This document shows, piece by piece, positions 3,301 through 63,070 of a stretch of DNA of 64,000 bases. Under the pieces are notes generated by a model. The model made no database searches, was not told the origin of the DNA, and saw only the letters and a program-made list of their open reading frames with translations. Made by a program: the position numbers and the translations under genes. Each line of letters begins with the position of its first letter. The first letter of the stretch is position 1. Source of the DNA: an uncultured Acidobacteriota bacterium. Lineage in GTDB: Bacteria; Acidobacteriota; Vicinamibacteria; Vicinamibacterales; UBA2999. The stretch is taken from the NCBI GenBank assembly GCA_963841905.1, contig CAWJEM010000022.1, positions 92,835 to 156,834 of the forward strand, given 5' to 3'.

Positions 3301-3383
3301 CAGCACCCACGGCACCCGCGCACCTTGAGCACAGTTGGCACCAGCACCCAGGCACCCGAGGCAGCTGAGGCACGTAAGGCACC
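3301..3383. repeat. Degenerate direct repeats of GGCACC(C)/AGCACCC
   Basis: cagcaccc acggcaccc gcgcacc ... ggcacc agcaccc aggcaccc ... aaggcacc fills the gap between convergent cutA and the PLP enzyme gene. I found no complementary arm. Confidence 0.8.
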
Positions 3384-3386
3384 TTG

Positions 3387-4538
3387 CTACGCGAGCGCCT
3401 GGTCCACATCCTCCTTGAGATCCTCGATGTCCTCGATGCCCACCGAGATGCGAATCATCCCGTCGGTGATGCCGATGGCGCCGCGACGCTCGGGCGGGAC
3501 GGAGGCGTGGGTCATGATGGCCGGGTGCGAAATGAGGGTTTCGACGCCGCCGAGGCTCTCGGCGAGTGACATCAGCTTGAAACGAGGCAGCACCGTTCTG
3601 GCGGCGTCGATCGACCCCACGTCGAACGTGATCAGGCCGCCGAATCCCCGCATCTGCTTTTTCGCCAGGCCGTGGTGCGGGTGATCGGGAAGACCCGGAT
3701 AGATCACGGATTTCACCTTGGGGTGCTTCGCCAGATGTTCCGCGAGCGCCTGGGCATTGGCGTTGGTGCGCTCAATCCGGATCGGCAAGGTCTTGGTGCC
3801 GCGCAGCACCAACCATGAATCCATCGGTCCCAGAATCGCGCCGGCGGCGTTCTGAACGAATTTCATCCACTCCACGTCATCGGCATGCTTCAGCACGTTG
3901 ATGCCGCCGACGCTGTCGCTGTGCCCGTTCAGGAACTTGGTGGTGCTGTGAGTGACGAGGTCGGCGCCGAGCTCGAGCGGGCGCTGAATGTACGGGCTCG
4001 CGAACGTGTTGTCGACGATGACGCGGACACCATGGCGATGCGCAATGGCGCAGGCGGCCGGGAGGTCGGTAATCCGAAGCATCGGATTGGTTGGTGTTTC
4101 GATGAACAAATACCTGGTCTTCTTGGTAATTGCCGGCTCGATCAAGTCGAGGCGCGAGGTATCCACGTAGGTGAAGTCGAGGCCGAACTTGCGGCGCACC
4201 CGTTCGAAGAGACGGAAGGTGCCGCCGTAGGTGTTGTCGCTGACCACGAGATGGTCACCGGCTTCGAGCCTGGTCAGGATGGCATCAATCGCGGCCATGC
4301 CCGAGGCGAAGGCAAACGCGGCGGCGCCCGACTCGATCGCTGCCAGGTTTGCTTCGAGCGCCATGCGAGTGGGGTTCTGGGTGCGGCCGTACTCGAACCC
4401 TTTATGCTGCCCGAGACCCTCCTGCACGTAGGTCGAGGTTTGATAAATCGGGGTGATGATGGCGCCGGTCGTCGGATCGGGTACCTGACCGGCATGAATG
4501 CACACGGTGTTGAAGCGCGCGGTGTCCTTGAGTTTCAC
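3387..4538 (-). CDS. Cys/Met-metabolism PLP-dependent enzyme (cystathionine gamma-lyase / gamma-synthase family)
   Basis: FNTVCIHAGQ...YQTSTY...GFEYGRTQNPTR...THSTTKFLNGHSD...ESLGGVETLISHPAIMTHASVP. Likely GTG start at 4538 behind AAGAGGGA; the track ORF extends to 4640. Confidence 0.9.
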   Translation of the reverse strand: MKLKDTARFNTVCIHAGQVPDPTTGAIITPIYQTSTYVQEGLGQHKGFEYGRTQNPTRMALEANLAAIESGAAAFAFASGMAAIDAILTRLEAGDHLVVSDNTYGGTFRLFERVRRKFGLDFTYVDTSRLDLIEPAITKKTRYLFIETPTNPMLRITDLPAACAIAHRHGVRVIVDNTFASPYIQRPLELGADLVTHSTTKFLNGHSDSVGGINVLKHADDVEWMKFVQNAAGAILGPMDSWLVLRGTKTLPIRIERTNANAQALAEHLAKHPKVKSVIYPGLPDHPHHGLAKKQMRGFGGLITFDVGSIDAARTVLPRFKLMSLAESLGGVETLISHPAIMTHASVPPERRGAIGITDGMIRISVGIEDIEDLKEDVDQALA

Positions 4539-4606
4539 GGTCCCTCTTTTTACTCTGTTATCATTTTGCGAGCAATTCAGCCGCCGCCAATAACGCCTTC
4601 CATGAG

Positions 4607-6772: not shown

Positions 6773-7729
6773 ATGCCAGAACTGACGGTCATCTTTCGCA
6801 CCGCGTCCAACATCGAGGCCAGCATCGTGCAGGCCCTGCTCGACAGCCACGGCATCGAGTCGGTGCGCACCTCGGGTCCGCCGGCGTCGCTGTTTCCCTT
6901 CACCGTCAACCCGATGGGCGAGACGTGCGTCTCAGTGCGGGAAGACGACGGACCCGAGGCGGTGCGGATTATCGAGAGCCATCGCGAAGAGGTGAGTGGC
7001 GGTTTGGTGGTACCGCTCCCGCAGCAATTTGCCGCGCTCGAGCTGCGAATCGGGTATCGCTTTCGCGATCGCGGGCTGCTCGAACACGCTCTCACTCACA
7101 AGTCCAAGGCGCATGAAGATCCAAGCGGGGGAGTGATGGACAACGAGTCGCTCGAATTCCTGGGCGACGCGGTCCTGGGGTTGGTGATAGCCGACGCGCT
7201 GTGCCGGGTCTTCCCGCGGTCCACCGAAGGTCAGAAGTCGAAGATCAAGGCCACGATGGTGTCCACCGCGTCGCTGGCGGAGCTCGCGGAACGCTTGCAG
7301 CTCGGCGACCACATGATTCTGGGTCGCGGCGAGGAAAAGACCGGGGGGCGCCGCAAGCAGGCGCTGCTGGCCGACACCTGCGAGGCGCTCATCGCCGCGA
7401 TTTACATCGACGGGGGACTCGAACCGGCGCGTCAGTTCCTGATGCGCGAGATGGGCGAGGCGGTCGAAGCCGCTGGCCAACCCGACTACCTGGGCCGCGA
7501 CCACAAGTCGCGGCTACAGGAAGTGCTCCAGGCGCTTGGGCGTCCGCTCCCGATCTACCGCATCGCTGGTGAAGCAGGCCCCGAACACCGCAAGATGTTT
7601 CACGTCGAGGTCGTCGTGTCGGGCGAAGTCATCGCGCAGGGCGTTGGCCGCACCAAGAAGGACGCGGAGCAGGAAGCCGCGAAAACGGCCCTGCTCGGGC
7701 TGACGGGCAACGCTAACGACGCGGAGTGA
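6773..7729 (+). CDS. rnc: Ribonuclease III with an N-terminal DUF2007-like extension of about 85 aa
   Basis: C-terminal 230 aa: GYRFRDRGLLEHALTHKS...NESLEFLGDAVLGLVIAD...DTCEALIAAIYIDGG...KSRLQEVLQ...GPEHRKMFHVEVVV...GRTKKDAEQEAAKTAL. The N-terminus LTVIFRTASNIEASIVQALLDSHGIESV...CVSVREDDGPEAVRIIESH resembles DUF2007. Confidence 0.9.
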   Translation: MPELTVIFRTASNIEASIVQALLDSHGIESVRTSGPPASLFPFTVNPMGETCVSVREDDGPEAVRIIESHREEVSGGLVVPLPQQFAALELRIGYRFRDRGLLEHALTHKSKAHEDPSGGVMDNESLEFLGDAVLGLVIADALCRVFPRSTEGQKSKIKATMVSTASLAELAERLQLGDHMILGRGEEKTGGRRKQALLADTCEALIAAIYIDGGLEPARQFLMREMGEAVEAAGQPDYLGRDHKSRLQEVLQALGRPLPIYRIAGEAGPEHRKMFHVEVVVSGEVIAQGVGRTKKDAEQEAAKTALLGLTGNANDAE

Positions 7730-7736
7730 TTCGCAA

Positions 7737-7826
7737 CAGTTACAAGTTACAAGTTACGAGTTACAAGTTTGAGTTGTCAGTTTCAAGCGCTTTGAACCTG
7801 TAACTTGGAACTTGTAACTTGTAACT
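7737..7826. repeat. Heptamer array hairpin: (GTTACAA)n left arm, (TTGTAAC)n right arm
   Basis: gttacaa gttacaa gttacga gttacaa gtttgag... cgc ...ctgtaac ttggaac ttgtaac ttgtaac, between convergent rnc (stop 7729) and the ATPase gene (stop 7842). Confidence 0.9.
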
Positions 7827-10724: not shown

Positions 10725-12239
10725 TCAGTTGACAACGACGCCGGAGGCGTACTCAAGTGTGCGGGACTGAATCATCTCAGCGATTCGATCGAGATCAGGA
10801 GCCGGCGGCCGATCATCCCCCAGCATCGCGACGTGTTGACGCACCGCCGCATGCACCTGCATCAGTGAATCGGATGATGCGAGCGGCGACAGCAAGTCGA
10901 TCGCCTGGCACGCACACAAGACCTCGACGGCGATCACGTTGATCGCCAGCTGCAAGGCGCGTTCCGCCTTCAGGGCCGCGGCCATGCTCATGCTGACATG
11001 ATCTTCCTTGTTCGCCGACGTCGGAATCGTGTCGACGCTGGCGGGATGGGCCAGTGTCTTGAGCTCGGAGGTGAGCGCGGCGGCCGTCACCTGGGCGATC
11101 ATCAAGCCCGAGTGCAGCCCGCCGTGCCGAGTGAGGAAGGCTGGCAGGCCGCTCAGCGCCGGGTTGACGAGGCGTTCGGAGCGTCGTTCGCTGATCGTCG
11201 CCAGCTGGGTGAGTGCGATCACCAGCAGATCGGATGCCACGGCCACTGGCGCGCCGTGAAAGTTGCCGCCCGAGACGATTTCGCCGGCCTCGGCGAAGAC
11301 CATCGGATTGTCGGTCGCTGAATTCATCTCGATGCGGATGACGTTGTGAACCCACGTGAGCGCGTCGCGCGCCGCACCATGGACCTGAGGCGCACATCGC
11401 ATCGAATAGGCATCTTGAACCCGACCGCAATTGGCGTGCGCCCGATTGATGCCGCTGCCGGTAATGAGCCGGGTAAGGTTGTCCGCGACCGTCCGTTGTC
11501 CCGCGAACGGTCGAGCCTCGTGAATCCGCCCTTCGAACGGCCGAACCGAGCCCTGAAGGGCATCGATGGAGAGGGCAGCGGCGACGTCGGCCGCCCGAGC
11601 GAGCCGTTCGGTGCCGGCGACGGCCAGCGCCGCGACCGCCGTGGACACTTGCGTGCCGTTGATGAGCGCGAGCCCTTCTTTCGGGCCCAGCACGACCGGC
11701 TCAATCCCCGCCTCGTCGAGCGCCTGTTTCGCGGGACGGGTCTCGTGACCGTCCCACACCTCGCCTTCGCCAATCAACACGAGCGCCATGTGTGCGAGCG
11801 GCGCGAGGTCGCCGCTGGCGCCGACCGATCCGCGACTGGGCACGCGAGGATGCACGCCGCGGTTCAACGCCGTGACGAGCGTGTCGAGCGTCTCGAGTCG
11901 GATGCCTGAAAAACCTTTGGCGAGGACGTTGGCGCGCAGGGCCATGGCCGCCCGCACGGCACGAATCGGCAGGGGCTTGCCGACACCGGCAGAGTGACTG
12001 CGGAGCAAGTTGATTTGGAGCTGCGCCACGTCCTCGCGCGGGATTCGTGTTTCAGCGAAAGAGCCAAACCCGGTGTTGACTCCATAGATCGGACGGTCGC
12101 CATCGGCCAGTGCATCGACGACGCGGCGAGCGGCTTGCACTTGCGCGCGCGCGTCCGGCGTGATGGCGATCGGCTCGCGCCCATCGGCGATGGCCACGAG
12201 TTGGTCGATGGTCAGGTCGTGGCCGTTCAATTCGATCAT
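10725..12239 (-). CDS. hutH: Histidine ammonia-lyase
   Basis: 504 aa, PIYGVNTGFGSFA...SRGSVGASGDLAPLAHMAL (ASG MIO motif)...NGTQVSTA...DAYSMRCAPQVHGA. Confidence 0.95.
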   Translation of the reverse strand: MIELNGHDLTIDQLVAIADGREPIAITPDARAQVQAARRVVDALADGDRPIYGVNTGFGSFAETRIPREDVAQLQINLLRSHSAGVGKPLPIRAVRAAMALRANVLAKGFSGIRLETLDTLVTALNRGVHPRVPSRGSVGASGDLAPLAHMALVLIGEGEVWDGHETRPAKQALDEAGIEPVVLGPKEGLALINGTQVSTAVAALAVAGTERLARAADVAAALSIDALQGSVRPFEGRIHEARPFAGQRTVADNLTRLITGSGINRAHANCGRVQDAYSMRCAPQVHGAARDALTWVHNVIRIEMNSATDNPMVFAEAGEIVSGGNFHGAPVAVASDLLVIALTQLATISERRSERLVNPALSGLPAFLTRHGGLHSGLMIAQVTAAALTSELKTLAHPASVDTIPTSANKEDHVSMSMAAALKAERALQLAINVIAVEVLCACQAIDLLSPLASSDSLMQVHAAVRQHVAMLGDDRPPAPDLDRIAEMIQSRTLEYASGVVVN

Positions 12240-12257: not shown

Positions 12258-13822
<1,565 letters not shown>

Positions 13823-13827: not shown

Positions 13828-13937
13828 GAAGTTACAAGTTACAAGTTACAAGTTCAAAGTTCAATTGAAGGAGACTACCGCAGCGCGAGCCAACTCGCGA
13901 GCGCTGTTTGGAACTTGTCACTTGTCACTTGTAACTC
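13828..13937. repeat. Heptamer array hairpin of the GTTACAA family
   Basis: gttacaa x3, gttcaaa, gttcaat ... inner small hairpin cgcgag-ccaa-ctcgcg ... ttggaac ttgtcac ttgtcac ttgtaac. Lies between the purA stop and the ABC ATPase start. Confidence 0.9.
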
Positions 13938-16000: not shown

Positions 16001-16065
16001 TGGCAGTCAGCAGCCAGCAGCCAGCAGGCAGCAGCTGGCGACCGGCAGCCGGCTGCCGGCAGCTA
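16001..16065. repeat. CAGCAGC-type heptamer array containing an 18-nt perfect palindrome
   Basis: cagcagc cagcagc cagcagg cagcagc tggcgac cggcagc cggctgc cggcagc, with ccggcagccggctgccgg at 16042-16059. It occupies the whole 66-nt gap between two convergent stop codons. Confidence 0.85.
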
Positions 16066-19789: not shown

Positions 19790-19884
19790 GCAGGGCACAG
19801 GGCGTAGGGCGTAGGGCGTAGGCGGCAGGGGATAGGGTCCCTAAGCCCCTCCCTATGCCCTACGCCCTATGCCCCATGCCCTAG
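19790..19884. repeat. Heptamer array hairpin: (GGGCGTA/GGGCACA)n and (TACGCCC/TATGCCC)n
   Basis: gcagggc acagggc gtagggc gtagggc gtaggcg gcagggg atagggt ccc | taagccc ctcccta tgcccta cgcccta tgcccca tgcccta g. The ppk stop codon (19881-19883) lies in the right arm. Confidence 0.9.
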
Positions 19885-24386: not shown

Positions 24387-24455
24387 AGCACGGAAACACG
24401 GAACATCGGAAGTGTCGTTTTGTGCCTACTGTGGCTTCCGCCTTAAGGCGGAAGC
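24387..24455. repeat. CACGGAA heptamer array followed by the hairpin GCTTCCGCC-TTAA-GGCGGAAGC
   Basis: agcacggaa acacggaa catcggaag directly after the TetR stop, then a 9-bp perfect stem at 24434-24455 whose arms match the unit (CGGAAG/CTTCCG). Confidence 0.8.
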
Positions 24456-24618
24456 TACGCGTGGTTCGCTTTGCGGCCCAGGTGGCTCCGCGATCGCAAT
24501 TTTGAAGTAGCGGCGCTGCACTCGCGTGCGACAAAGGCGAATGATCAAACCCAGGGTTTCGGACGAAGCCGTACAGCGCGCAACTGGACGGGCTTGGGCT
24601 GAATGGTGCCGGCTGCTT

Positions 24619-36133: not shown

Positions 36134-36145
36134 CATGGCCGCGAG

Positions 36146-36485: not shown

Positions 36486-36526
36486 AGAACGTCAGTGGGC
36501 GTGTGCTTCACGTAAGATAGGGCGCG

Positions 36527-40603: not shown

Positions 40604-40668
40604 GGTTCCATGGTTCCATAGTTCCAAGGTTCGAAGTACAGAACCCTGGAACCCTGGAACCCTGGAAC
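40596..40668. repeat. 8-nt unit array hairpin: (GGTTCCAT)n and (GAACCCTG)n
   Basis: ggttccat ggttccat ggttccat agttccaa ggttcg aagtaca gaaccctg gaaccctg gaaccctg gaac, lying between or over two divergent start codons. Confidence 0.9.
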
Positions 40669-42583: not shown

Positions 42584-42700
42584 GGTTACAAGGGCGCAGG
42601 GCGTAGGGCATAGGGCACAGGGAGGGCGTAGGGCACAGGCGAAGGCCCATTTCCCCCCTCCCGCCCGGTGTTCTGTTCCCTGTTCCCTGTATCTGTAACT
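42584..42700. repeat. Heptamer array, chimeric GTTACA + GGGCNNA units, with a partly complementary right arm
   Basis: ggttaca agggcgc agggcgt agggcat agggcac agggagg gcgtagg gcacagg ... ctgttcc ctgttcc ctgtatc tgtaact. Confidence 0.85.
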
Positions 42701-42717: not shown

Positions 42718-45700
42718 ATGCTGCTGCGTCATACGTTCGCGTTTATCGTCGTGCTCATCGCCGCGGTCGGCGTTCGTCCGTCAGCGGACGTCAATGTGCG
42801 CGATACGCGATTGCTGCATCAGCCGGCCACCAGTGGCACCATGTCGCGTTCATTTATGCCGATGATCTGTGGGTGGCGACGGCTCGACGGCCGTGATCTT
42901 CGACGCCTGACCACTGACTATGGCGTCGAATCGAGCCCGGCGTTCTCGCCAGACGGGGCGCTGATTGCCTTCACGGCCCAATACGACGGCAACCGCGACG
43001 TCTATACCGTGCCGGTGGATGGCGGCGTGCCCAAGCGTCTCACCTGGCACCCCGGCGCCGACGAGGTGCAAGGCTTTACGCCGGACGGGCGTCGTGTGCT
43101 GTTCACCTCGCCGCGATCCGTCTTCACAACGCGCTACACGCAGTTGTTCACGGTCGCGCTCGACGGCGGCATGCCCGACCTTCTCCCGATTCCCAACGCC
43201 GCCAGCGGGACCTACTCGCCCGACGCCCGCCGAATCGCTTACAACCCCATCGCGCCTCGATTCGAACAGTGGAAGCAATATCGAGGTGGCACGGTCTCTC
43301 GGATTTGGCTTTATGACACGTCCAGCCATGCCATCGAGAAAATCCCGCAGCCTGCGTCTCGTGCCAACGACGTCGACGCCATGTGGATTGGCGACCTCGT
43401 CTACTTCCGGTCGGATCGGGACGGCGAGTTCAATCTCTACTGCGTACGAATCGGGATCGCAGCGCGTTCAGCGGCTGACGAATCACCAGGACTTTCCGAT
43501 TCTGAACGCCGCGACGGGTGGTGGACAGATTGTGTACGAGCAGGCCGGCTACCTGCATCACTTCGACCCGTCGACCAAGACCTCTCGCAAGCTCACGTTT
43601 GGCGTGTCGTCCGATCTTCGCGAAACGCGCGAGCGGTTCGTCAAAGGTGCCAACTGGATCAGGGCAGCGGCCATTTCGCCAACGGGCGCTCGAGCCGTGT
43701 TCGAGTTCCGCGGTGAGATCCTGACGGTGCCGGCGGAGAAGGGTGATGCGCGCAACCTGACGAACACGCCGGGCGCGCACGAGCGCGCGCCGTCATGGTC
43801 GCCTGATGGCACGCGGATCGCCTACGTATCTGACGCGTCTGGGGAGTATCTCCTGCACGTCGTAGGCCAGGACGGGAAGGGCGAGACGACCAAGCATCGG
43901 CTCGAAGGCGCCGGCTTCTACACCAACCTTCGATGGTCGCCAGACAGCAAGCAGATTGCCTACACCGACAACGCCCAAGCGCTGTTCGTATTCGACGTTC
44001 AGAAAGGGACGACGAGGAAGGTAGCCGCTGCCAAGGTCTATGGTCCGTTCAACAGCATCACGTTACGGCTGGTCGCCGGACTCGCGGTGGCTCGCTTACA
44101 CCGCCAACACGCATCCGCTGACGATGACTCTGTCGGTCTACTCGGTCGATCAGGACAAATCGTTTCCCATCAGCGATGGACTCGCCGAGGTGAGTGAACC
44201 CGTCTTCGATCGCAGCGGCAAGTATCTGTACCTGTTTGGATCCACGGATGCGGGACCTGTCCTCGACTGGTTCGCGCAATCGACGTCTGACAACCGTCGA
44301 ACGCGGAATATCTATCTCGTCGTGCTGCGGAATGACCTTCCGTCGCCGTTGGCGAGAGAGAGCGACGAGGAGAAGCCCAAAGCGGCTTCGCCGAGCACAT
44401 CTGCCGCCGGAGAGAAGCCTCCCGCGGAACCGCCGGCTGAGCCTGTCCGCATCGACTTCGAGGGGATCGAATACCGCATCCTCGATCTCCCCGGAGTTGG
44501 GGGCGAGTTGTCCAACCTCCAAGCGGCCGCGACGGGGCAGCTGTATTACCTCAGCGCCAGCGCTGAATTACCACCACCACCGCCACCAGGGGCGCCACCC
44601 ACCCCGCCGCGTGGGGCGCGCCTGTTCCGTTTCGACCTCGCGAAGCGTCAGACCGAACAAGTGCTGGACGATGTTCGAGACTATCGAATCTCGAGTGACA
44701 CCAAGAAGCTTCTGTATTCGACTCGCGACAACTGGTTCATCACGTCGCTGTCGCCGAAGGTCGTAGCGGCCGAGGGTCGCCTCGCAACCGCCGACCTCGA
44801 AGTCCGCATCGACCCGCGAGCGGAATGGGCACAGATATTCGACGAGGCGTGGCGCATCAACCGCGATTACTTTTATGCGCCCAACATGCACGGCGTGGAC
44901 TGGCCGGCGCTGAAGACCAAGTACAAGGTGTTGCTATCCGACGTCGCCGTCCGTGGCGACCTCAACCGCGTGATTCAGTGGATGTCGAGCGAGTTGGCGG
45001 TCGGCCATCACACCGGCGGCGGCGGTGACCGCCTGGACACCCCGAAAACAGTGCCAGGTGGTCTTCTCGGCGCCGACTACTCGGTCGAGAACGGGCGGTA
45101 TCGCTTCAAGAAAGTCTACGGCGGCCTCAACTGGAACCCGCAGCTGCGTGCGCCGCTCACTGAGCCCGGCGTCAATGTTCGCACGGGCGAATACTTGCTC
45201 GCCGTCGGCGGCCGCGACGTGCGGCCACCCGCGAACATCTACAGTTTCTTCGAGAACACGGCAGGGAAGATCGTCGAGATCACCGTTGGCCCCAACGCGG
45301 ATGGCAGCGGCTCGCGCACCGTGCACGTCGTTCCGATTGGCAACGAAGCGGCGCTTCGCAATCGGGACTGGGTGGAGGGCAATCTGAAGAAGGTCAACTC
45401 GGCCACCGGCGGGCGCGTCGCATATGTCTATGTGCCCAACACTGCCGAGCCTGGCTATACCTACTTCAAGCGGTATTTCTACCCGCAAACGCACAAGGAC
45501 GCCGTCATCATCGACGAGCGCTTCAACGGCGGTGGCCAGATTGCGGATTACTACATCGATATTCTCAGGAGGCCCCTCATCAGCTACTGGGCTATGCGCT
45601 ACGGCGACGATCTCCGCACACCGGTGGCGGCGATCCAGGGTCCCAAAGTGATGATCATCGATGAGACGGCAGGGTCGGGCGGAGACCTGCTGCCGTGGAT

Positions 45701-46045
45701 GTTCCGCAAGTTCAAGGTTGGCACCCTGGTCGGGCAGCGCACCTGGGGCGGCTTGGTGGGTGTGTTGGGATTCCCCATCCTGATGGACGGTGGATCGATT
45801 ACCGCTCCGAATCTGGCGATCTGGACGCCCGAGGAAGGATGGGTGGTTGAAAACGAGGGCGTTCCGCCTGACGTGGAAGTCGAGCAGACACCGAAGGACG
45901 TGATTGCCGGTCGCGATCCGCAACTCGAGCGCGCCATCGCGATTGCGCTCGAAGACCTGAAGAAGAGCCCGCCGACGCGCCCGGCACGACCAGCGTTTCC
46001 CGTGCGCGGAAAGACACTACGGGGAACGGCGCCGACGGGAGGTGA
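42718..46045 (+). pseudogene. Tricorn-type protease (TolB-like beta-propellers + S41 peptidase), at least 4 frame breaks; 3' end uncertain
   Basis: Three overlapping track ORFs (42718..43716, 42965..44197, 44040..46292) join into one tricorn-like protein: ...YSPDARRIAYNP...QWKQYRGGTVSRIWLYD...FRSDRDGEFNLY / YESGSQRVQRLTNH...SWSPDGTRIAYVSD...RWSPDSKQIAYTDN / YGWSPDSRWLAYT...FNGGGQIADYYID...TAGSGGDLLPWMFR. A hidden frame at 42840-42881 encodes HVAFIYADDLWVAT. Confidence 0.85.
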
Positions 46046-46047: not shown

Positions 46048-46119
46048 GCAGGGCACAGGGCACGGGGCGCAGGGCGGGGGCCGCAGTCCTACGCCCTGGG
46101 CCCCAGGCCCTATGCCCTG
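46048..46119. repeat. Heptamer array hairpin of the GGGCACA/GGGCGCA family
   Basis: gcagggc acagggc acggggc gcagggc ggggg ccgcagt cctacgc cctgggc cccaggc cctatgc cctg, between the tricorn 3' end and the peroxiredoxin stop (46127). Confidence 0.9.
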
Positions 46120-46126: not shown

Positions 46127-46813
46127 TCACCCTCTAGGCTGCGGCACGATCCGCAGGTACGGCTTCGGCGCTTTCCAGCCGTTGGGATATTTCTCCTTGG
46201 CTTCCGCATCGCTGACTGCCGTCAGGATGATCACATCGTCGCCATCCTTCCAGTTCACCGGTGTGGCCACCTTGTGCTTTGCAGTCAGCTGAATCGAATC
46301 GATGACCCGCAGGACTTCATCGAAGTTGCGCCCCGTACTCATCGGATACGAGATGACGAGCTTGACCTTCTTGTCCGGACCGATCACGTAGACGTTGCGA
46401 ACGGTCGCGTTGTCGACGGCGGTCCGACCTTCGGAGCTGTCTCCCGCCGTGGCGGGCAGCATTCCGTACAGCTTGGAGATCTTCAGCTCGGGATCGCCAA
46501 TCATCGGATAGTTGGGCGCAGTCCCCTGCGTTTCGGCAATGTCCTTGGACCAGCCCTCGTGCTTGTCGACCGGATCGACGCTGAGCCCGATGACTTTGAC
46601 GTTGCGCTTGTCGAATTCCGGCTTGATCCGCGCCATGTAGCCGAGCTCGGTTGTACAGACGGGCGTGAAGTCTTTCGGATGCGAAAACAGAACGCCCCAG
46701 GAATTGCCGAGCCATTCGTGAAAACGAATCGGACCCTGGGTGGTGTTGGCTTCGAAGTCTGGCGCGTCGGCGCCTATGGCGAGCGGGCCATTCGTTGCGA
46801 GCGAGGGGGCCAT
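46127..46813 (-). CDS. 1-Cys peroxiredoxin (Prx6 family)
   Basis: APDFEANTTQGPIRFHEWLGNSWGVLFSHPKDFTPVCTTELG...GLSVDPVDKHEGW...NYPMIGD...RNFDEVLRVIDSLQ-like region. Confidence 0.95.
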   Translation of the reverse strand: MAPSLATNGPLAIGADAPDFEANTTQGPIRFHEWLGNSWGVLFSHPKDFTPVCTTELGYMARIKPEFDKRNVKVIGLSVDPVDKHEGWSKDIAETQGTAPNYPMIGDPELKISKLYGMLPATAGDSSEGRTAVDNATVRNVYVIGPDKKVKLVISYPMSTGRNFDEVLRVIDSIQLTAKHKVATPVNWKDGDDVIILTAVSDAEAKEKYPNGWKAPKPYLRIVPQPRG

Positions 46814-50500: not shown

Positions 50501-51639
50501 AGGCTGTGACGGCGTTGCTCGAACCAGCACACCAGGAGCTCTGGCGTCGTGTGTCGGAATGGGCGCGGCGTGTTCTGCGGCCCAAGCGTGAGCCTGCGAC
50601 AGACGACGAAGCTCGGCGTGAGGCGCGCGCGCTGCTTCGTGAGATTGGCGGTGGTGGGTGGCTTCAGGCGCTGGCGTCGCAGGACCTCCGGGGCATCTGC
50701 CTCGTGCGCGAAGCAGTGGCCGCGCAGAGCCCGCTGGCGGATGCAGTGGTCGCGATTCAGGGACTCGGTGCCACCGCGTTGATCCTCGGGGGCACGGCCG
50801 AACAGCGGTCGCGCTGGGTGCCGGGGATCATCGCCGGCGATGTGATGGCCGCCTTTGCGATGACCGAACCAGATGCCGGCTCGGACGTTGCGGCGCTAAC
50901 CACGACGGCTCGACATGACGACGACGGTTGGATTCTCGAGGGCGAGAAGCACCTCATTTCGAACGCCGGACTCGCGGACATTTATCTCGTCTTCGCAAAG
51001 ACGTCACCCGAACAGGGGAGTCGTGGTATCTCGGTGTTCCTCGTGCCATCGGACACCTCTGGCTTGTCGTTCGAAGGCGCGCAGGTGCTCGCGGCCGCCC
51101 ATCCCCTGGGCCGGATCCGCTTTCGCAATTGCCGGGTTCTCGACTCGGCACTGGTGGGAGAGCGCGATCGGGGGTTCAAGCTCGGAATGCAAACGCTCGA
51201 TCGACTGCGGCCGACGGTCGGCGCCGCCGCATGCGGCCTGGCAGCTCGCGCGTTGGACGAAGCCATTGCCCACGCCCTTCAGCGACGGCAGTTCGGCCAG
51301 GCCCTCGCCGACATGCCGGTCATACGAGCAAAGGTCGGCCAAATGGCAACCGATCTCGATGCCGCACGGATGCTGGTGTATCGCGCGGCGTGGGAACAGG
51401 CGCATGGCGCCCAGCGAAATTCGGCGTCAGCCGCGATGGCCAAGCTGTTCGCGACCGAAATGGCGCAACGCGTGGTCGATGAGGCAGTGCAGATCGTCGG
51501 AGGCATAGGCGTACTCGTTGGCCATCCCGTCGAAAGGCTGTATCGAGCCGTCCGCGCCTTGCGAATTTACGAAGGCGCCTCTGATATTCAGCGGCTGATC
51601 GTCGCCGGCGGTGTTTTCGACGAGGCCACGAACGCGTGA
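50497..51639 (+). CDS. Acyl-CoA dehydrogenase
   Basis: 380 aa. AAFAMTEPDAGSDVAAL...EGEKHLISNAG...ATEMAQRVVDEAVQIVGGIG...RALRIYEGASDIQRLIV. Confidence 0.9.
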   Translation: MKAVTALLEPAHQELWRRVSEWARRVLRPKREPATDDEARREARALLREIGGGGWLQALASQDLRGICLVREAVAAQSPLADAVVAIQGLGATALILGGTAEQRSRWVPGIIAGDVMAAFAMTEPDAGSDVAALTTTARHDDDGWILEGEKHLISNAGLADIYLVFAKTSPEQGSRGISVFLVPSDTSGLSFEGAQVLAAAHPLGRIRFRNCRVLDSALVGERDRGFKLGMQTLDRLRPTVGAAACGLAARALDEAIAHALQRRQFGQALADMPVIRAKVGQMATDLDAARMLVYRAAWEQAHGAQRNSASAAMAKLFATEMAQRVVDEAVQIVGGIGVLVGHPVERLYRAVRALRIYEGASDIQRLIVAGGVFDEATNA

Positions 51640-53971
51640 CGCGCGGCCTGCGGATCGTCTGCGTCGGCGGCGGGCCGGGAGGTCTTTATTTCGCTCTCTT
51701 GATGAAGCGCGCGGCCCCCCAGAACGACATCTGTGTCGTCGAACGCAACCGTCCTGACGACACGTTCGGTTTCGGCGTGGTGTTTTCGGACGCGACGATG
51801 GCTGGGATTGCCGAGGCGGACACCGAAGCGTTCGCGGCGATCTCGAACGGCCTGGTTCACTGGGACGACATCGCCATTCACCATGGTGGCGAGACGATTG
51901 TCTCAACCGGACACGGTTTCAGCGGCATGAGCCGTCACACGCTGCTGGCGACGCTGCAGCAACAAGCGGCCGCTGCGGGCGTGCGCCTCGAGTTCGAGCG
52001 AGAGATCGACACGCTGGATCAATTCGCCGACGCTGACTTGATCGTGGGCGCCGATGGCGTCAACAGCACCGTTCGGCGACTGCTGGGCGATCGCCTCGAG
52101 ACCACGATCGACCATGGACCGAATCGCTTCGTGTGGCTGGGCACGACGAAGCCGTTTGCCGAGTTCACCTTCTACTTCAAACGGAACGGGCACGGCCTGT
52201 GGCGAGTCCATGCCTATCAGTACGGGCCGAATCGCTCGACGTTCATCGTGGAGTGCCGCGACGAGACCTGGCGTGCGGCCGGGATGCATCGCGCGAGTGA
52301 AGAAGAAACGGCCGCGTTTCTCGAGGCGCTGTTCAGCGAAGAGCTCGCCGGTCATCGGCTGATCACGAACCGTTCTCTGTGGCGCCAGTTTCCGACCGTC
52401 AGCGTGAGACCCTGGTCGAGCGGCAACGTCGTGTTGTTGGGTGATGCGGCGCACACCGCCCACTTCTCCGTCGGTTCCGGCACGCGGATGGCAATGGAGG
52501 ATGCGGTCGCGCTGGTCGAACAGTTAGGGCAGGTAGGGCAGGTAGGGCAGGTAGGGCGGAGTGGGTCGGGTAGGGCAGGTTGGGGAGGCACTGGAGGCGT
52601 ACGAAGCAGCGCGGCGGCCGGCGGTTGAGAGCTTGCAGCGCGCTGCGCAGGCCTCGCTGCAATGGTTTGAAGACACCGAGCGCTACCTGCGGCTGCCCTG
52701 GTTGCAGTTTGCGTTCACGCTGCTGACGCGATCGCTCCGGATCACTCACGAGGATCTGCGAAAGCGCGACCCCGCCTTTCTCGGTCGAGTTGACCGTGCG
52801 GTGTCCGAGGCCGCGACGCGTCAAACGCGACTCGAAGCCCCAGCCGGCAAGACATCTGGGGCAGTGCCGCCACCGATGTTCACCCCGTTCCGGCTCAGAG
52901 ATCTCATCGTGCCGAATCGGATCGTGGTCTCACCGATGTGTCAGTACGTGGCTGACGATGGGACGGTGGGCGACTGGCACATCGTGCATCTTGGCAGTCG
53001 TGCGATTGGCGGCGCGGGGCTCGTGATGGCCGAAATGACCGACGTGAGCCGCGACGCGCGGATCTCCACGGCGTGTGCGGGTCTTTACCAGCCCGAGCAC
53101 GCGGTGGCGTGGCGGCGAGTGGTTGACTTCATTCATCGCGAGACACCCGCCAAGGTCGGCATCCAGTTGGGGCACGCAGGCCGCAAGGGAGCCACGAAAA
53201 AGCTGTGGGAAGGCGACAGCGAACCCATGGACGGTCCCGCATGGCCTCTCCTCTCGCCGTCTCCCATTCCTTATTTCGCCGACCGATCGCCAATTCCGCG
53301 AGAGATGACTCGCGACGACATGAACGTCGTTCGAGAAGACTTCATTCGGGCGACGTATCTTGCGCTCGACGCTGGATTCGATCTCCTCGAAGTACACATG
53401 GCGCACGGATATCTCCTGGCCTCGTTCATCTCACCCCTGACCAACCGCCGAGAGGACGAATATGGTGGCGTGCTGGCCAACCGCATGCGGTTCCCGCTCG
53501 AGATCTTCGCAGCGTGTCGTAAGGTATGGCCGGCGGAGCGACCAATGAGCGTGCGGATCAGCGCGGTCGACTGGGTGCCCGGTGGGCTGGAGCCCGCCGA
53601 CGCCGTCGAGGTGGCGCGACTACTCAAGTCGCGTGGCTGCGACGTCGTGGACGTCTCGGCTGGGCAAACGGTGCCGGAACAGCGTCCACAGGTACGGTCG
53701 ATTGTTCCAGACGCCCTTTGCCGACCGCATCCGGCACGAAGTGGGGATGCCGACGATGGCGGTTGGCAACATCTCGTCCTACATGGACGTCAACACAATC
53801 ATTGCGGCCGGCAGAGCGGACTTGTGTCTGCTCGCGCGCGCGCATTTGTTCGACCCCTACTGGGCACGCCATGCCGCCTACATGCAGGGCTACGTCATAC
53901 CGTGGCCCGATCCGTACAAGTCGGTCGAGCGATATACGCCTCGATTTGAATTCCGTTTCGGGGGAGACTGA
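51636..53971 (+). pseudogene. Bifunctional FAD monooxygenase / Old-Yellow-Enzyme reductase (2-aminobenzoyl-CoA monooxygenase/reductase or salicylyl-CoA 5-hydroxylase type), two frame breaks
   Basis: ORF 51636..52628 gives RIVCVGGGPGGLYFALLMK...VLLGDAAHTAHFSVGSGTRMAMEDAVAL. ORF 52561..53949 gives [15 protein letters not shown]...IVVSPMCQY...HAGRKG...[31 protein letters not shown] 53582..53971 gives [27 protein letters not shown]...[10 protein letters not shown]. Breaks at about 52566 and 53691. Confidence 0.8.
52524..52585 (+). repeat. Intragenic 9-nt tandem array GGGCAGGTA encoding (G-Q-V)n
   Basis: gggcaggta x3, gggcggagt, gggtcgggta (10 nt), gggcaggtt. Reads [23 protein letters not shown] inside the monooxygenase gene. 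Confidence 0.9.
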
Positions 53972-53975
53972 TGCC

Positions 53976-55467
53976 GTGGTTTCTGTGAACCCCGCCGATC
54001 CCTGCACCATTGTCATTTTTGGCGCGAGCGGTGACTTGACCCACCGACTCTTGATCCCATCGCTGTACAACCTCGCCGAAATGGGACTGCTGTCCGACCG
54101 GGTGGCCATCATCGGCCTCGCCCGATCGGAATCAACCGTGGAGCAGCTCAAGGAAAAGTTCCGGGAAGCAATCGAGAGCGCCGAAGGCCATCCGGTCGAT
54201 GCCGCTCTCTTTGATCGCACGAATGCAGCACCTCTCGTACATCGCGGCTGATTTCAACGACGAATCGGCATGGCAGCGGCTGGCTGACGAACTGGATGCG
54301 ATGGCGGAGGCGATCGAGACACGGAACGTCCTCTTCTATCTCGCGATCGCCCCCGAACAGTTTCTGAACGTGTGCGAACGGCTGGCGCGGCGAGGACTCC
54401 TCGACGAACGCGACGGTTGGCGGCGGGTGATTGTCGAAAAACCATTCGGCACCGATTTGGCGTCGGCGCGTGAGCTCAATCGACGACTCCGGATCGTCAT
54501 GAAGGAGCATCAGATCTATCGGATTGATCACTACCTCGGGAAGGAAAGCGTTCAAAACATCCTGGTCTTTCGCTTCGGCAACGGCATCTTCGAGCCGATC
54601 TGGAATCGTCGTTACGTCGACCATGTGCAAATCACGGTGGCCGAAACGCTGGGCGTCGAGATGCGCGGCAGCTATTACGATCAGGCAGGCGCGCTGCGCG
54701 ATATGGTTCCGAATCATCTGTTTCAGATTCTGACGCTGACAGCGATGGAGCCGCCCAGCTCGCTCGAGGCCAACGCGCTGCACAACGAACAGGTGAAGGT
54801 TCTCGAAGCGATCGAGCCCTTGAGCCTGCGCGAGTGCAGCGCGACGAGCGTGCGAGCCCAATACACCGGCGGGACGGTCGGCGGTTCGACCGTGCCGCCG
54901 TACCGGGTCGAGCCGCGCGTCAATCCGGCCTCGAAGACCGAAACGTATGTGGCATTCCGCATCGCGGTCGACAACTGGCGGTGGGCCGGCGTGCCCTTCT
55001 ACCTCCGCACCGGCAAGCGACTGGCGAAGAGGAAGAGCGAGGTCGTGATCCAGTACAAACAGCCGCCGTTGGCGCTCTTCCGCCAGGCCTCGATGGCGGC
55101 CCCGGAACCCAACCTGCTGGTCATCTCGATTCAGCCAGAGGAGACGATCAGGTGGCGTTTTGCGGCCAAACTGCCCGGGGCGGAATTGACGACGAGCCCG
55201 GTCGACATGCGGTTCAACTACGACGACTATTTTGGCGTCGAACGCCACACGGGTTACGAGACGCTGCTCTACGACGCGATGACCGGCGACCGCATGCTCT
55301 ACAAACGGGCCGATATCGTCGAAGAGGGTTGGGCCGTTGTCGAACCCATCTTGAAGGCGTGGACGAGCGGTGAATGCGGGCTGGCGTCGTATCCCGCAGG
55401 CAGCGACGGGCCTCGGGAAGCTGATGAACTCCTCTCGCGCGAAGGGCGGCGGTGGAGACGGTTGTGA
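53976..55467 (+). pseudogene. zwf: Glucose-6-phosphate dehydrogenase, frame broken near 54210
   Basis: The tail of ORF 53526..54251 gives [30 protein letters not shown]...[11 protein letters not shown] 54199..55467 gives [15 protein letters not shown]...[11 protein letters not shown]...[23 protein letters not shown]...[19 protein letters not shown] 53976 sits behind GGGGAGA. Confidence 0.9.
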
Positions 55468-55593
<126 letters not shown>

Positions 55594-61711: not shown

Positions 61712-62614
61712 ATGGTCCGTGTGATGGTTTTCGCCGGCGTGGTGACACTCGCGGGCCAGCAACCGACGGCACCGCCGGCGGGCGGCGCTCAGACACCGCC
61801 GGGCACCGACATCTACGAGCTCGCGTTCAGCGGCCGGCTCGAGACGCTCAAGGAAGCAACCCCGCAACCCATCAGCGTTGCGCCGGGCTACGACAATCAA
61901 CCCTTCTACACGCCCGACGGCGCAGCCGTGTTGTTTACGGCCAATCGTGACGGTAAGCAGACGGACATCTACGAATTCGATCGCGCGGCGCGGCGCGTCC
62001 GGCAACTGGTTGCGACCCCCGAAGGCGAGTATTCGGCAACCATCACGCCGGATGGCAAAGGCTTCAGCGTGATCCGCGTCGAAGCCGACGGGACACAACG
62101 CCTGTGGCGCTTCGACCGCAACGGCAGCAACCCGAAGGTCGTGCTTTCCGAGATCAAGCCAGTCGGTTATCACGCCTGGGTGGATGCGGATCGATTGGTC
62201 CTCTTCATCCTCGGCAAGCCGTCAACGCTTCAGACCGCACCGGTGTCAACCGGCAAAGGTACTGTCGTGGCCAGCAACGTCGGCCGTTCGATCCTGCGCA
62301 TGCCGGGCGGCAACTCCATCAGCTTCGTCGAGCGCCTGGAGAACGGTGAACACTGGGTGAAAGAGCTGAATCCCACGACCGGCGTGAGCACGCCGCTGGT
62401 GATGGCGCCCGCCGGCTCGACCGAGCGGGATTGCGCGTGGCTGCCGGATGGTACGCTCCTCATGTCGGCCGGCGCACGAATCGTGGCGTGGCGGCGAGGT
62501 CAGGGATGGCGTGACGTCTACGATGTGGCCATCCACAAACTGGGCGCCGTGACACGGATGGCGGTGGCGCCGGATGGGCGGAGTATGGCCATCGTGGTGA
62601 ACGAGGGAAAATAG
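61712..62614 (+). CDS. TolB-like (PD40/WD40-like) beta-propeller protein, secreted
   Basis: GYDNQPFYTPDGAAVLFTANRDGKQTDIYEFD...EGEYSATITPDGKGFSVIR...MAVAPDGRSMAIVVNE. Confidence 0.6.
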   Translation: MVRVMVFAGVVTLAGQQPTAPPAGGAQTPPGTDIYELAFSGRLETLKEATPQPISVAPGYDNQPFYTPDGAAVLFTANRDGKQTDIYEFDRAARRVRQLVATPEGEYSATITPDGKGFSVIRVEADGTQRLWRFDRNGSNPKVVLSEIKPVGYHAWVDADRLVLFILGKPSTLQTAPVSTGKGTVVASNVGRSILRMPGGNSISFVERLENGEHWVKELNPTTGVSTPLVMAPAGSTERDCAWLPDGTLLMSAGARIVAWRRGQGWRDVYDVAIHKLGAVTRMAVAPDGRSMAIVVNEGK

Positions 62615-62618
62615 ACCC

Positions 62619-62825
62619 ATGAGCTTCTGCGAACACTGCCAGGGACAACGTTTCGACCGGGCCCGCGTCCTCCGGGCGCTGCGGCAGATCCGCAAGGACC
62701 TGCGTGCCCCCGATCGCGGGGGACCGCTCGACCATGCGATTTTCACCGCGCTCGAGACGGTGCGAGCCCTCGACATCCCACACCTCGAGCCTGAAGAGGT
62801 CGAGGAGAATCAAGTGATTCACTAA
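62619..62825 (+). CDS. Small hypothetical protein (68 aa, CxxC near the N-terminus)
   Basis: MSFCEHCQGQRFDRARVLRALRQIRKDL... Starts 4 nt after the previous stop, behind GAGGGA. No family recognised. Confidence 0.3.
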   Translation: MSFCEHCQGQRFDRARVLRALRQIRKDLRAPDRGGPLDHAIFTALETVRALDIPHLEPEEVEENQVIH

Positions 62826-63070
62826 CGTCGGTTCTTGACGGGGGTTCTTCACGGAGGTTCTTGACGAGGGTTCGACAAAGGTTCTTTGACGACAGTTCAT
62901 CGGCGAACGAACCATCGTGAAGAACCGTCTCGTGAAGAACCTTCGTCAAGAACCTTCGTCAAGAACCTTCGTCAAGAACCTTCGTGAAGAACCCTCGTGA
63001 AGAACCCTCGTGGAGAACCCTCGGCGAACCATCTTTGAGAACCTTCGTAGAGAACCGTTGTGGAGAACCT
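62826..63070. repeat. 13-nt unit array: about 5 GGTTCTTSAC-type units, then about 12 GTSAAGAACCYTC units up to the next start codon
   Basis: cggttcttgac gggggttcttcac ggaggttcttgac ... gtgaagaaccttc (gtcaagaaccttc)x3 (gtgaagaaccctc)x2 gtggagaaccctc ... gtggagaacct gATG. The last unit supplies GGAGA as the RBS. Confidence 0.9.

Follow-up and report, generated by a model that had tools for sequence, protein, structure and literature searches.

A stretch of 64,000 nucleotides from an uncultured Acidobacteriota bacterium (assembly GCA_963841905.1, contig CAWJEM010000022.1, positions 92,835 to 156,834 of the forward strand; hereafter the window, with coordinates counted from its first base) raises the question of why so many gaps between its genes are occupied by tandem copies of a short unit followed, across a spacer, by tandem copies of the reverse complement, and of what such paired arrays might do. 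The window is a 64% GC piece of bacterial chromosome with ordinary housekeeping gene content, and the arrays in it are intergenic hairpins whose arms consist of a short tandem unit, mostly 7 nt and sometimes 8 or 13 nt long, and its reverse complement. This architecture is real, abundant and fast-evolving. The arrays are probably best explained not as elements of fixed sequence but as structures that are built and rebuilt in place, and the reading that we favour, at about an even chance of being correct, is that they are palindromic repeat arrays built by slippage that would act as transcript-end hairpins.

Arrays were defined with a tandem repeat finder (TRF) as merged repeats with a period of 6-14, at least three copies and a score of at least 40. 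By this rule the window contains 24 arrays, about one per 2.7 kb, as compared to 0-1 (mean 0.15) per shuffle in 20 dinucleotide shuffles. Twenty-one of the 24 fall within the 9.3% of the window that is called non-coding (binomial p = 3e-19), where they make up 19% of the bases; the three that the gene map places in coding sequence include two with 9-nt units and one, at 30335, that is upstream of a likely true start codon. An initial annotation, made from the letters of the window, had listed arrays at 17 coordinates, and TRF arrays are present at all 17. It had also reported that arrays fill seven convergent and two divergent gaps and that they abut or contain stop codons, and both statements hold in the gene map: arrays occupy seven of nine convergent gaps, two of 10 divergent gaps and seven of about 21 co-directional gaps, they start 0-14 nt from stop codons, and at several loci (19883, 24796, 31203 and 55468/55593) stop-codon bases lie inside the array. 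The claim of one layout at all 17 loci was too broad. An array, a spacer and a reverse-complement array were recovered by inverted-repeat finder and folds at 12 loci (7737, 12258, 13828, 19790, 24619, 30271, 31203, 40596, 42584, 46048, 55468 and 62826), whereas those at 3301, 16001, 24387, 36146 and 39303 are one-armed or weak; moreover, the spacers between arms measure 8-71 nt rather than the 3-50 nt first given.

The capacity to fold was assessed by folding each intergenic gap on both strands and expressing the result as a z-score against shuffles. The gaps at 7730, 12240, 13823, 19789, 24387, 40604, 55468 and 62826, which hold eight of the 12 two-armed loci, reached values between -4 and -11 on one strand or both, and those at 30203, 31204, 36134 and 42583, with three more of these loci (-2.7 to -3.9), gave -2.7 to -4; the gaps at 3298, 16000 and 39254 have no fold signal relative to shuffles. 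The hairpin at 46048, which lay inside an open reading frame (ORF) of the gene map at the folding stage, is described by its minimum free energy (MFE) only, without a z-score.

The same architecture is found well beyond this contig, in ten syntenic loci on seven contigs of relatives and in 80 loci from metagenomes. Syntenic relatives were collected by way of PurA (L081, with 98% identity to the window protein, L082 and L083 with 91%, and L084 with 88%), by way of an amidase (L085 with 100%, L086 with 98%, L087 with 97%, L088 with 96%, and the outgroup L171 with 87%) and by way of Gnd (L169 and L170, of the same 90% cluster), and were joined by 80 metagenome contigs in which a NACHT-like gene converges on the gene for RNase III (61-83% identity); 1.3 Mb of purA loci from unrelated bacteria served as controls. 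Array density is 2.43 per 10 kb in 544 kb of clade loci versus 0.34 in the unrelated bacteria. The period is 7 nt in 85 of 132 clade arrays (64%) and 8 nt in 24 of them (18%), and the unrelated loci likewise peak at 7 nt. Pairing is specific, in that at least two tandem reverse-complement units occur within 300 nt of 69 of 130 clade arrays versus one of 130 when reversed or complemented control units are used. Among the 34 strict pairs in the clade, spacers are 2-102 nt long and arms typically have 3-5 units, about four being commonest; the arms of 68% of pairs agree to within one unit (permutation p = 0.057, Spearman rho = 0.11), most arms having about four units anyway.

These data also bear on whether the arrays could be an artefact of assembling a metagenome-assembled genome (MAG) from long reads, which the initial annotation had named as one outcome that would undo its claim. 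Frameshifts in some window genes make indel errors likely, and copy numbers are possibly off, but the architecture recurs in independent assemblies, namely in those of seven or more ENA samples and in 80 metagenome contigs from JGI and elsewhere. As contigs from many samples and assemblers carry it, an artefactual origin of the architecture is scarcely credible.

What the relatives add is a view of the arrays in motion, and in these comparisons array copy number changes faster than point substitutions accumulate. At 36146 the flanks of the window and of L085 are 100% identical and the gaps nonetheless differ by 19 nt in length (393 versus 412 nt), while L087 and L088 have a lone GACCACTGACC at this site. 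The gap between hutH and purA is 92-93 nt long in L082 and L083, where it holds a minimal inverted repeat plus two units, and has reached 277 nt in L081, where the left arm is the expanded one, and 293 nt in the window, where the opposite arm is. In the outgroup L171 the 40596 hairpin consists of 3 + 1 units. L083 has an outer hairpin of GGGTGATT units that looks like the gene ends to either side of it. Unit arrays thus vary among relatives (L081-L088 and L169-L171), and the earlier suggestion that the arrays are prone to slippage is borne out to the extent that copy number differs across contigs with identical flanks and that growth from seeds of one or two units can be followed.

The two arms of a hairpin evolve independently, each amplifying its own variant. 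Those at 40596 differ by one constant U.C mismatch per unit, an arm-specific variant that is retained in five genomes (the window and L085-L088); the arms at 24619 are composed of GTGATC and GTGGTC variants; at 55468 the right arm is perfect and the left one degenerate; and at 62826 the amplified variant is TTCGTCAAGAACC in the window versus TTCGTGAGGAACC in L169, the layout being otherwise alike. Loss by central deletion is visible as well: at 13828, L081 has only one unit per side, GAAGTTAC-TTGTAACTC.

More drastic changes replace the unit family altogether, and this happens among relatives whose proteins are 96-98% identical. The GGGCRYA hairpin of the window at 19790 corresponds to a CAGTT-family array in L081, L082 and L083, which argues that the window family is a derived replacement, and at 30271 the GGCCYAC units of the window and L086 are likewise derived, given the CAGTT family in L087, L088 and the outgroup L171. 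At 42584, L086 has the GGGCRYA family of the window (197 nt, -137 kcal/mol), the hairpin of L087 and L088 is made up of GTTACAA units alone, and the outgroup L171 has a 51-nt gap with no array; at 46048, GGGCRYA in the window stands against the GTTACAA family in L086-L088. At 55468, in a comparison made without an outgroup, ACGGTCY units are common to the window and L170 (about 8.5 perfect copies), and L169 has a nested CCGGTSGCC/CAGTT hairpin. Remnants of older families persist in the spacer at 31203 and at the outer edge of the array at 42584. Other relatives have no hairpin at the orthologous gap, their gaps being -17 to 22 nt long, and the hairpin is therefore dispensable.

Family replacement, together with the recurrence of unit families at unlinked loci, invites the view that the arrays are non-autonomous mobile palindromes, akin to repetitive extragenic palindromic (REP) sequences, bacterial interspersed mosaic elements (BIMEs) or transposable elements of the miniature inverted-repeat kind (MITEs), which would be spread by a transposase encoded elsewhere (for instance of the REP-associated tyrosine transposase, or RAYT, type) or by copy-and-paste template switching, the tandem units being secondary. 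The recurrence noticed in the initial annotation is well above chance, as 10 locus pairs match within one mismatch versus 1.96 expected (P = 0.0004). Same-family arrays are not significantly clustered (two adjacent pairs, 30271/31203 and 42584/46048, versus about 1.2 expected by a hand estimate). Mobility would also suit the derived replacements relative to the outgroup at 19790 and 30271 and the arrayless outgroup at 42584, the nested hairpins of L083, L169 and the 31203 spacer, the resemblance of L081 at 13828 to an empty site, the REP-like palindrome, dispersed in relatives, that adjoins both CACGGAA arrays, and the preference of REPs for convergent and co-directional gaps (PMC3733652). Copies of one family, however, have only the unit in common and differ in apex, spacer, length and ends; target-site duplications and terminal inverted repeats were not seen at the array loci; the arrays grow from sequence already on site; and no transposase or RAYT was present among 20 scanned window proteins or among precomputed Pfam hits of syntenic orthologues. 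On balance a mobile origin seems distinctly unlikely.

We therefore return to slippage-built hairpins that act at transcript ends, and to how they could arise. The seed would be an inverted repeat of small size situated where a gene ends, in many cases formed by two gene termini or by a terminator-type stem, and each arm would then gain or lose whole units through replication slippage, with central deletions in palindromes that have grown long. With both arms periodic and their units complementary, no single register is needed for pairing, and the stem so outlasts unequal changes in copy number without compensatory mutation; selection on coding sequence would stop growth at stop and start codons, with the result that arrays take up the whole gap. 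The unit type at a site would sometimes be replaced, probably by copying from another array through template switching or gene conversion; the replacements and the recurrence of heptamers at unlinked loci indeed require either copying between arrays or the exchange of whole alleles between strains. Slippage as the process, the route by which units are copied between loci and any function at the RNA level are steps that we infer from comparison of the sequences.

As to effect, most arrays follow a gene directly and should thus be transcribed, giving stem-loops of 30-50 bp. These probably act like REP/BIME hairpins or those of the cyanobacterial short tandemly repeated repetitive (STRR) sequences, independently of a U-tract and often in both directions, and would end or insulate transcripts and protect their 3' ends. 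Stem-plus-T-run terminators are not in excess over shuffles in positions 1-60,000 (13 versus 11.9, 13 versus 12.0 and 16 versus 14.8), and in the same interval the consensus terminator scan, whose E. coli-type consensus, like that of the promoter scan, may not fit this host, placed no site in any array locus except a weak 5-pair stem at 12258-12271. Several hairpins of relatives have at their apex a GC-rich stem-loop followed by TTTG or TTTTG (the 42584 and 46048 sites), a GC-rich stem is also enclosed at the apex at 13828, and gene ends where the family has been replaced still have one hairpin or another. Downstream position, the lack of a terminator excess, the apex stems and this persistence together suggest a role at transcript ends, in termination, insulation of convergent genes or 3' protection, and U-tract-free terminators or RNA-stability hairpins are the most plausible form of it.

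Several observations weigh against this reading. If the hairpins worked as RNA, G:U pairs might favour the sense strand, and the lean in that direction is weak (16 of 21 related hairpins, 140 versus 105 G:U pairs) and confounded by the G-richness of the plus strand and the non-independence of loci. Stems of 30-50 bp with few mismatches would be RNase III substrates and could destabilise a transcript rather than protect it. Local slippage accounts neither for the recurrence of the same heptamers at unlinked loci nor for the family swaps at orthologous sites among 96-98% relatives, and the preference for 7 nt is likewise not accounted for. Finally, two arrays are placed not at 3' ends but in the promoter or leader regions of divergent gaps.

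The main competing account dispenses with function and regards the arrays as by-products of a lineage-specific mutational bias, namely an expansion-prone slippage at palindromes, that gather where selection is weakest, mainly after stop codons. The range of orthologous gaps, from -17 nt to several hundred nt, the lack of constraint on unit sequence across the clade, the arrays that end exactly at coding sequence and the frequency of unequal arms (5.7 versus 17.6, 2.9 versus 9.8 and 3.4 versus 12.5 copies) are all what such a bias would leave behind, and the unclear RNA-strand signal agrees with it. The return of a hairpin to the same gene ends after its family has been replaced is harder to reconcile with debris, and with no enrichment of terminators something else must end transcripts; the contrast between convergent and divergent gaps fits a 3'-end role, though weaker constraint fits too. 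We regard this account as unlikely, yet as one to be taken seriously.

A more ambitious proposal is that a process dedicated to this clade, and indifferent to unit sequence, builds, at gene ends, heptamer hairpins that supply its main factor-independent bidirectional terminators. A polymerase or repair activity at stalled forks or cleaved hairpins would do the building and would copy unit types between hairpins. If true, the arrays would be a distinct, self-renewing class of terminators that replaces the stem-plus-U-tract design, and not mutational debris; at present we consider the proposal speculative and improbable.

Among the 80 metagenome relatives, the convergent RNase III/NACHT-like gap varies widely in content: many unit families with no relation to one another occur in it, as do ordinary GC hairpins, and some relatives have neither. 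Its length lies between -17 nt, where the genes overlap, and several hundred nt, and its arrays often begin inside the stop codon. Dozens of unrelated units in one orthologous gap, and the tolerance of family swaps by close relatives, are difficult to square with the idea that the arrays are tandem sites bound by some abundant protein, such as a nucleoid-associated or IHF/HU-like one or a global regulator. A period of 7 nt does not keep step with the DNA helix, and most arrays are at 3' ends rather than promoters. The same layout has been interpreted as protein-binding in Geobacter metallireducens (PMC2700814), although that interpretation is a proposal only; arms of about four units are found there, in Xanthomonas and here, a CACGG core connects several of the GC-rich families, and two arrays do lie in divergent promoter regions. 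Binding-site arrays thus have a slim chance of being the explanation.

An even smaller chance attaches to contingency (phase-variation) switches, in which gain or loss of units would alter promoter-to-ribosome-binding-site spacing or leader structure. Copy number is polymorphic among near-identical contigs, unit lengths are not multiples of 3, and 13-mer arrays reach the start codons of purA and of a MacB-like gene, where the last unit is the ribosome-binding site. Most arrays, however, are downstream of genes, it is the inner units that vary and the bases closest to the start codon that are kept, and the lineage is free-living in soil. The neighbours are housekeeping genes (purA, zwf/gnd, ppk and RNase III) rather than surface or antigen genes, and it is this, with the many unrelated units per orthologous gap, that weakens both the contingency and the protein-binding explanations.

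Some catalogued structures were considered and set aside. An array of regularly interspaced, clustered short palindromic repeats (CRISPR) has direct repeats of 24-48 nt and unique spacers about as long, whereas the units here are 7-13 nt long and contiguous, with a single spacer between opposite arms. A MITE does not fit a length that varies by unit steps, with no shared termini or duplications when filled and empty sites are compared, and a fixed-sequence REP does not fit arrays whose one-family copies differ in apex, spacer, arm length and ends. The canonical intrinsic terminator was rejected because the scan of positions 1-60,000 gave no excess over shuffles and, apart from the weak stem at 12258-12271, no site in the array loci. 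A G-quadruplex is not a general explanation, since G-runs are confined to the GGGCRYA family (19793, 42592 and 46051).

The individual loci convey how varied the outcome can be. Of the two-armed hairpins between convergent genes, that at 7738-7826 (AGTTACA x4.6, a 25-nt spacer, AACTTGT x4.6; MFE -45 kcal/mol, z -7.9/-8.4) separates the genes for RNase III and a NACHT-like protein; hairpins with other unit variants occupy the site in L081-L083, and L084 has a 13-nt gap and no hairpin. The RNase III gene directly upstream (6773-7729) encodes an extra N-terminal DUF2007-like domain, and RNase III cuts long double-stranded RNA, the product expected from such hairpins; its adjacency to this gap is conserved clade-wide, and the hairpin there is not. 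In many metagenome relatives (L094, L096, L098, L101, L105, L107 and others) the gap downstream of the NACHT-like gene is about 300 nt long and has a small ORF inside, which in L094 and L096 starts MCRNIKTLFNF; in L096 the ORF has an AGGAATC array on one side and a CCTGATT array on the other, so that the two arms are about 260 nt apart.

The hairpin at 19792-19883 (AGGGCRY about x5, a spacer, CCCTAYG x4.7; -75 kcal/mol, z -7.3/-6.6) lies in the convergent gap between a MacB-like gene and that for polyphosphate kinase, with the ppk stop codon inside the right arm, and G3N4 runs in both arms make it capable of forming a G-quadruplex. At 46049-46118, a hairpin of CAGGGCA x3.9 and CCTAGGC-type x4.4 units (MFE -75 kcal/mol) is intergenic once gene ends are set from orthologues, and fills the convergent gap between a tricorn-like protease (TGA at 46043-46045) and AhpC (46127-46813, minus strand). 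The hairpin at 55468-55593, with eight degenerate GGYCNAC units on the left, a 13-nt loop and ACCGTGG x7.4 perfect units on the right (-102 kcal/mol, z -9.9/-11.0), constitutes the whole convergent zwf/gnd gap from stop codon to stop codon.

The 13-mer arrays extend to start codons. That at 12260-12516, in the divergent hutH/purA gap, has TGGTTCTTCACGA x2.9 plus degenerate units on the left and about 10-11 copies of GAACCNNCGTGAA on the right (z -3.4/-5.1), and its last base is 17 nt ahead of the purA ATG. That at 62830-63070, with GGTTCTTSACGRG x3.4 plus degenerate units on the left and GAACCYTCGTSAA x12.5 on the right (z -10.9/-8.5), runs from 4 nt past a stop codon up to the ATG of a MacB-like gene (63072), of which its final unit forms the GGAG ribosome-binding site. 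The 8-mer hairpin at 40596-40668, composed of GGTTCCAT x4.6, an 8-nt loop and GAACCCTG x3.5 (z -9.0/-7.1), lies in the divergent gap between a hydrolase and an amidase gene.

Downstream of purA, the array at 13829-13936 begins 6 nt past the stop codon and consists of AAGTTAC x3.7, a spacer with a GC-rich stem-loop, and ACTTGTC x3.4 (z -4.2/-4.7). The hairpin at 24622-24796 pairs TCAGTGA/GTGATC x5.7 with GACCACN x17.6 across an 8-nt spacer and abuts the stop codon of a minus-strand TauE-family gene. A systematic A/G difference between its arms leads to G:U pairs (17 in all) in the minus-strand RNA only (-107 versus -70.5 kcal/mol), and the pattern fits the preceding minus-strand gene; as a single striking case it proves little. 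At 42585-42700 (left arm AGGGCRY x6.7, right arm of GTTCCCT-type units; z -3.9/-1.6), one GTTACAA...TGTAACT unit pair is left over at the outer edge.

The array at 30272-30364 (GGCCYAC x5.3, a spacer, CCGTGGA x4.3) is just 3' of a GC-rich, terminator-like hairpin at 30219-30262, with 16 perfect pairs followed by the T-run TTTCGTTT. The consensus terminator scan did not pick up this hairpin, which is kept in L086, L087, L088 and L171 while the adjoining tandem-unit hairpin switches family. The nearby array at 31203-31361 (ACGGTCC x11.7, a 47-nt spacer, GCCGTAG x4.4; z -3.3/-2.9) begins at the last base of a stop codon and ends 7 nt ahead of the next ATG; what remains in its spacer is the right arm of a CAGTT-family array, a nested structure also found in the outgroup L171, and copy number in relatives ranges from 3 to about 12, with another unit family in L087.

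Five loci are one-armed or weak. At 3301-3386, a degenerate one-armed array of 8-9 nt GCACC-type units (TRF 3344-3373) occupies the convergent gap of a CutA1 gene and a Cys/Met-metabolism gene and forms no hairpin (z +2.1/-0.8); the same site in the 98% relative L081 is a 10-nt gap with one GCACCTTG. The array at 16002-16063, CAGCAGC/GGCAGCC x8.9, is partly self-complementary (z only -1.9/-1.6) and fills the convergent gap between an ABC-2 permease and an M20 peptidase gene to within 2 nt of both stop codons; relatives have TCAGTGA/CCGGTGG units there. At 36148-36208, about eight units form a one-armed CACKGAY array. The gap that contains it (36134-36526, 393 nt) is a remnant at the place where a beta-lactamase-family gene (about 350 aa) stands in L087, L088 and L171; the array arose at the 5' edge of that deletion, and the gap retains two long, strongly paired segments (about 36300-36500) that L085 and L086 also have. 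The remaining two, at 24388-24458 (CACGGAA x3, then a REP-like palindrome CTTCCGCCTTAAGGCGGAAG at 24435-24454) and at 39303-39377 (GCACGGAA x4, a partial complement and the palindrome CTTCCGGCTGAAGGCGGAAG at 39358-39377; no z-score signal, and a site that is hypervariable among relatives), are alike in having a palindrome next to a CACGGAA array.

This palindrome, CTTCCGCC-N4-GGCGGAAG, occurs twice in the window, with none expected by chance, each copy being 20-30 nt downstream of a CACGGAA array. It is also present in L087, L088, L153 and L170, and at the 39303 site L087 and L088 have tandem copies about 24 nt apart. The palindrome behaves like a classical REP and may have been the seed of the CACGGAA arrays. 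The CACGG core is itself common to most of the GC-rich families (CACGGTC, CACGGAC, CACGGAT and CACGGAA), whose loci are 24387-24796, 30272-31361, 36148-36208, 39303-39334 and 55468-55593. An 8-mer pair, CACGGAGA/CTCCGTGA, in an unrelated subdivision-1 acidobacterial MAG (L072:3757-3930) corresponds to TCTCCGTS, the class 2 unit of Geobacter, when the latter is read as its reverse complement. Chance, mutational bias or a shared binding motif may each account for this.

The surroundings of the arrays are unexceptional. Genes in the window include purA, hutH, ppk, zwf/gnd, the RNase III gene, and genes for MacB-type ABC permeases and amidases. Window PurA is 72% identical to a PurA from a Vicinamibacterales/Acidobacteriota MAG, the best among the matches listed from GTDB species genomes, and in a larger protein collection the nearest relatives, 88-98% identical, come from ENA soil-type assemblies; the source thus resembles an acidobacterium of the Vicinamibacteria and probably belongs to a free-living soil lineage. 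An Rfam scan of the whole window gave no match to any covariance model at gathering score, and scans of the window for transfer RNA and transfer-messenger RNA found none. Sigma-70-type promoter-like sites are not in excess over shuffles in positions 1-60,000, and both promoters and terminators of this organism may differ from the E. coli consensus.

The gene map was corrected with orthologues from relatives. Frameshifts split several window genes (42718-46045, 53526-55467 and 51636-53949) that are intact in relatives: the tricorn-like protease is broken into three ORFs as compared to 1105-1108 aa in L086-L088 and L171, the main zwf ORF is without the N-terminus of the 496-aa protein of L169 and L170, and a fusion of FMN-oxidoreductase and FAD-binding domains, 771 aa in L169, is split. 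Similar splits in other genes of L087, L088 and L170 point to long-read indel errors or to pseudogenes, and exact array copy numbers consequently need care. Coding arrays have a different unit length. The 9-nt array that the initial annotation placed within a gene, CAGGTAGGG x7.4 at 52521-52588, is indeed coding and specifies Gly-Gln-Val (GQV) repeats in an oxidoreductase linker; L169 has fewer copies, and the window frameshift falls within the array. It is not the single such array, as first stated, since a second, short 9-nt coding array lies at 11871-11897 within hutH.

To our knowledge, tandem-heptamer hairpins have received passing mentions in cyanobacteria, Xanthomonas and Geobacter and have never been named, explained or tested. 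The value of the present clade is in its very high array density and in graded relatives that capture seeds, expansions, central deletions, nesting and family replacement at the same sites. With such a series, the 7-nt slippage step, the tolerance and renewal of palindromes, and U-tract-free termination in high-GC bacteria become testable questions. The arrays are also hypervariable strain markers, and places at which assemblers and gene callers err, because ORFs run through them and start codons are called inside them.

How, then, do the arrays relate to known repeat systems? The statement in the initial annotation that no described class fits did not survive comparison with the literature, as the same layout is known from Xanthomonas (PMC4692102), Geobacter (PMC2700814) and the cyanobacterial STRR sequences (PMC2670836). 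The window arrays are an acidobacterial case of an architecture described before, and the match is by architecture and not by unit sequence; a literature search returned no report of such repeats in Acidobacteria. Membership by sequence fails because the published units are not found in tandem: GGGAATC, GTTGCTYN, TCTCCGTS[Y], MTYCTGA and GGACCGG form no run of at least three copies in the window and the other clade loci. Nor do the STRR1-3 heptamers, which we take to be CCCCAGT, TTGGTCA and CAACAGT, occur here as three or more tandem copies.

A close published case is that of Xanthomonas, in which each genome has 70-75 convergent pairs of GGGAATC arrays with noted stem-loop or cruciform potential (Rehm et al. 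2015, PMC4692102). The arrays there have 2-26 units, about four being typical, lie near stop codons and are mostly transcribed, and copy number differs between species while the single or paired type is kept (PMC4692102). Non-coding tandem heptamers in opposite-strand pairs are common to both, and GGGCRYA of the window is of the same quadruplex-capable G3N4 type. Unlike Xanthomonas, with its one dominant unit, the window has at least eight, most of its families are without G-runs, GGGAATC itself is absent, and 12 pairs occur in 64 kb as compared to about 70 in 5 Mb. In Geobacter metallireducens, four classes of paired arrays have been described, classes 1-3 under the name of global regulator binding sites, with 3-5 tandem units of 7-9 nt, mostly in opposite-strand pairs at variable distance, which are intergenic and absent from the sister species (Aklujkar et al. 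2009, PMC2700814). Each class has a fixed consensus, a similar copy number and 8-24 sites, read as IHF/HU sites, and class 1 sites have insertion sequence (IS) elements at a fixed distance (PMC2700814). The likeness lies in several intergenic unit classes per genome, paired on opposite strands; the difference is that units and copy numbers vary freely here and that no IS elements were seen at the arrays.

Cyanobacterial STRR sequences are intergenic 7-bp tandem units capable of forming hairpins, as between hupS and hupL, which are mentioned as commonplace and for which a role in transcript stability or termination has been suggested (PMC2670836). They resemble the window arrays as hairpin-forming intergenic heptamers and differ in being few and fixed; Nostoc has "only a few paired repeats" (PMC4692102), so that pairing is the exception there and the rule here. 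A broader class, the long simple sequence repeats (LSSRs) with units of 5-11 nt, is related in secondary accounts to be commonest as heptamers, to be enriched in large GC-rich genomes of non-pathogens and to be kept out of genes when units are not multiples of 3, polymerase slippage being the proposed cause (Mrazek, Guo and Shah 2007, via PMC4679880 and PMC4692102). The window has the same tandem excess over shuffles, heptamer dominance and coding arrays with 9-nt units. LSSRs are a statistical class of direct repeats, and inverted pairing is not part of the class as those two secondary sources present it.

The TAACTGA heptamers of Beggiatoaceae, cyanobacteria and Bacteroidetes form intergenic arrays across phyla (MacGregor 2015, PMC4679880), and in Beggiatoa nearly all are direct repeats just upstream of start codons, with one inverted among 170 (PMC4679880). 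Read as its reverse complement, TCAGTTA, this heptamer is similar to the CAGTTAN units of the oldest family of this clade, and an ATCAGTT/ACTGATA pair is present in a control locus from Parabeggiatoa (L060); unlike in Beggiatoa, exact TAACTGA tandems are absent here. The GTAG/CGTC-tagged REPs are abundant intergenic palindromes that mostly follow genes, with convergent and co-directional gaps as their usual place (Di Nocera et al. 2013, PMC3733652); they often form inverted pairs that fold into larger structures, are presumed to be transcribed as RNA hairpins, and are strain-variable (PMC3733652). Array placement in convergent, co-directional and divergent gaps is like that of REP/BIME sequences. 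Unlike a REP, which has one fixed 20-40 nt palindrome per family and is linked to a RAYT, the arrays have tandem arms of variable length and no whole-element consensus, and in the window only CTTCCGCC-N4-GGCGGAAG fits a fixed REP palindrome; no RAYT of the IS200/IS605 type was found in the scanned window proteins or orthologue Pfam hits, the rest of the genome being outside that search. Measured against the known paired arrays, the differences are of degree: a density more than 10 times higher, at least eight unit families within 64 kb, 8-mers and 13-mers among them, nesting, and a series of relatives in which the turnover of such hairpins can be followed site by site.

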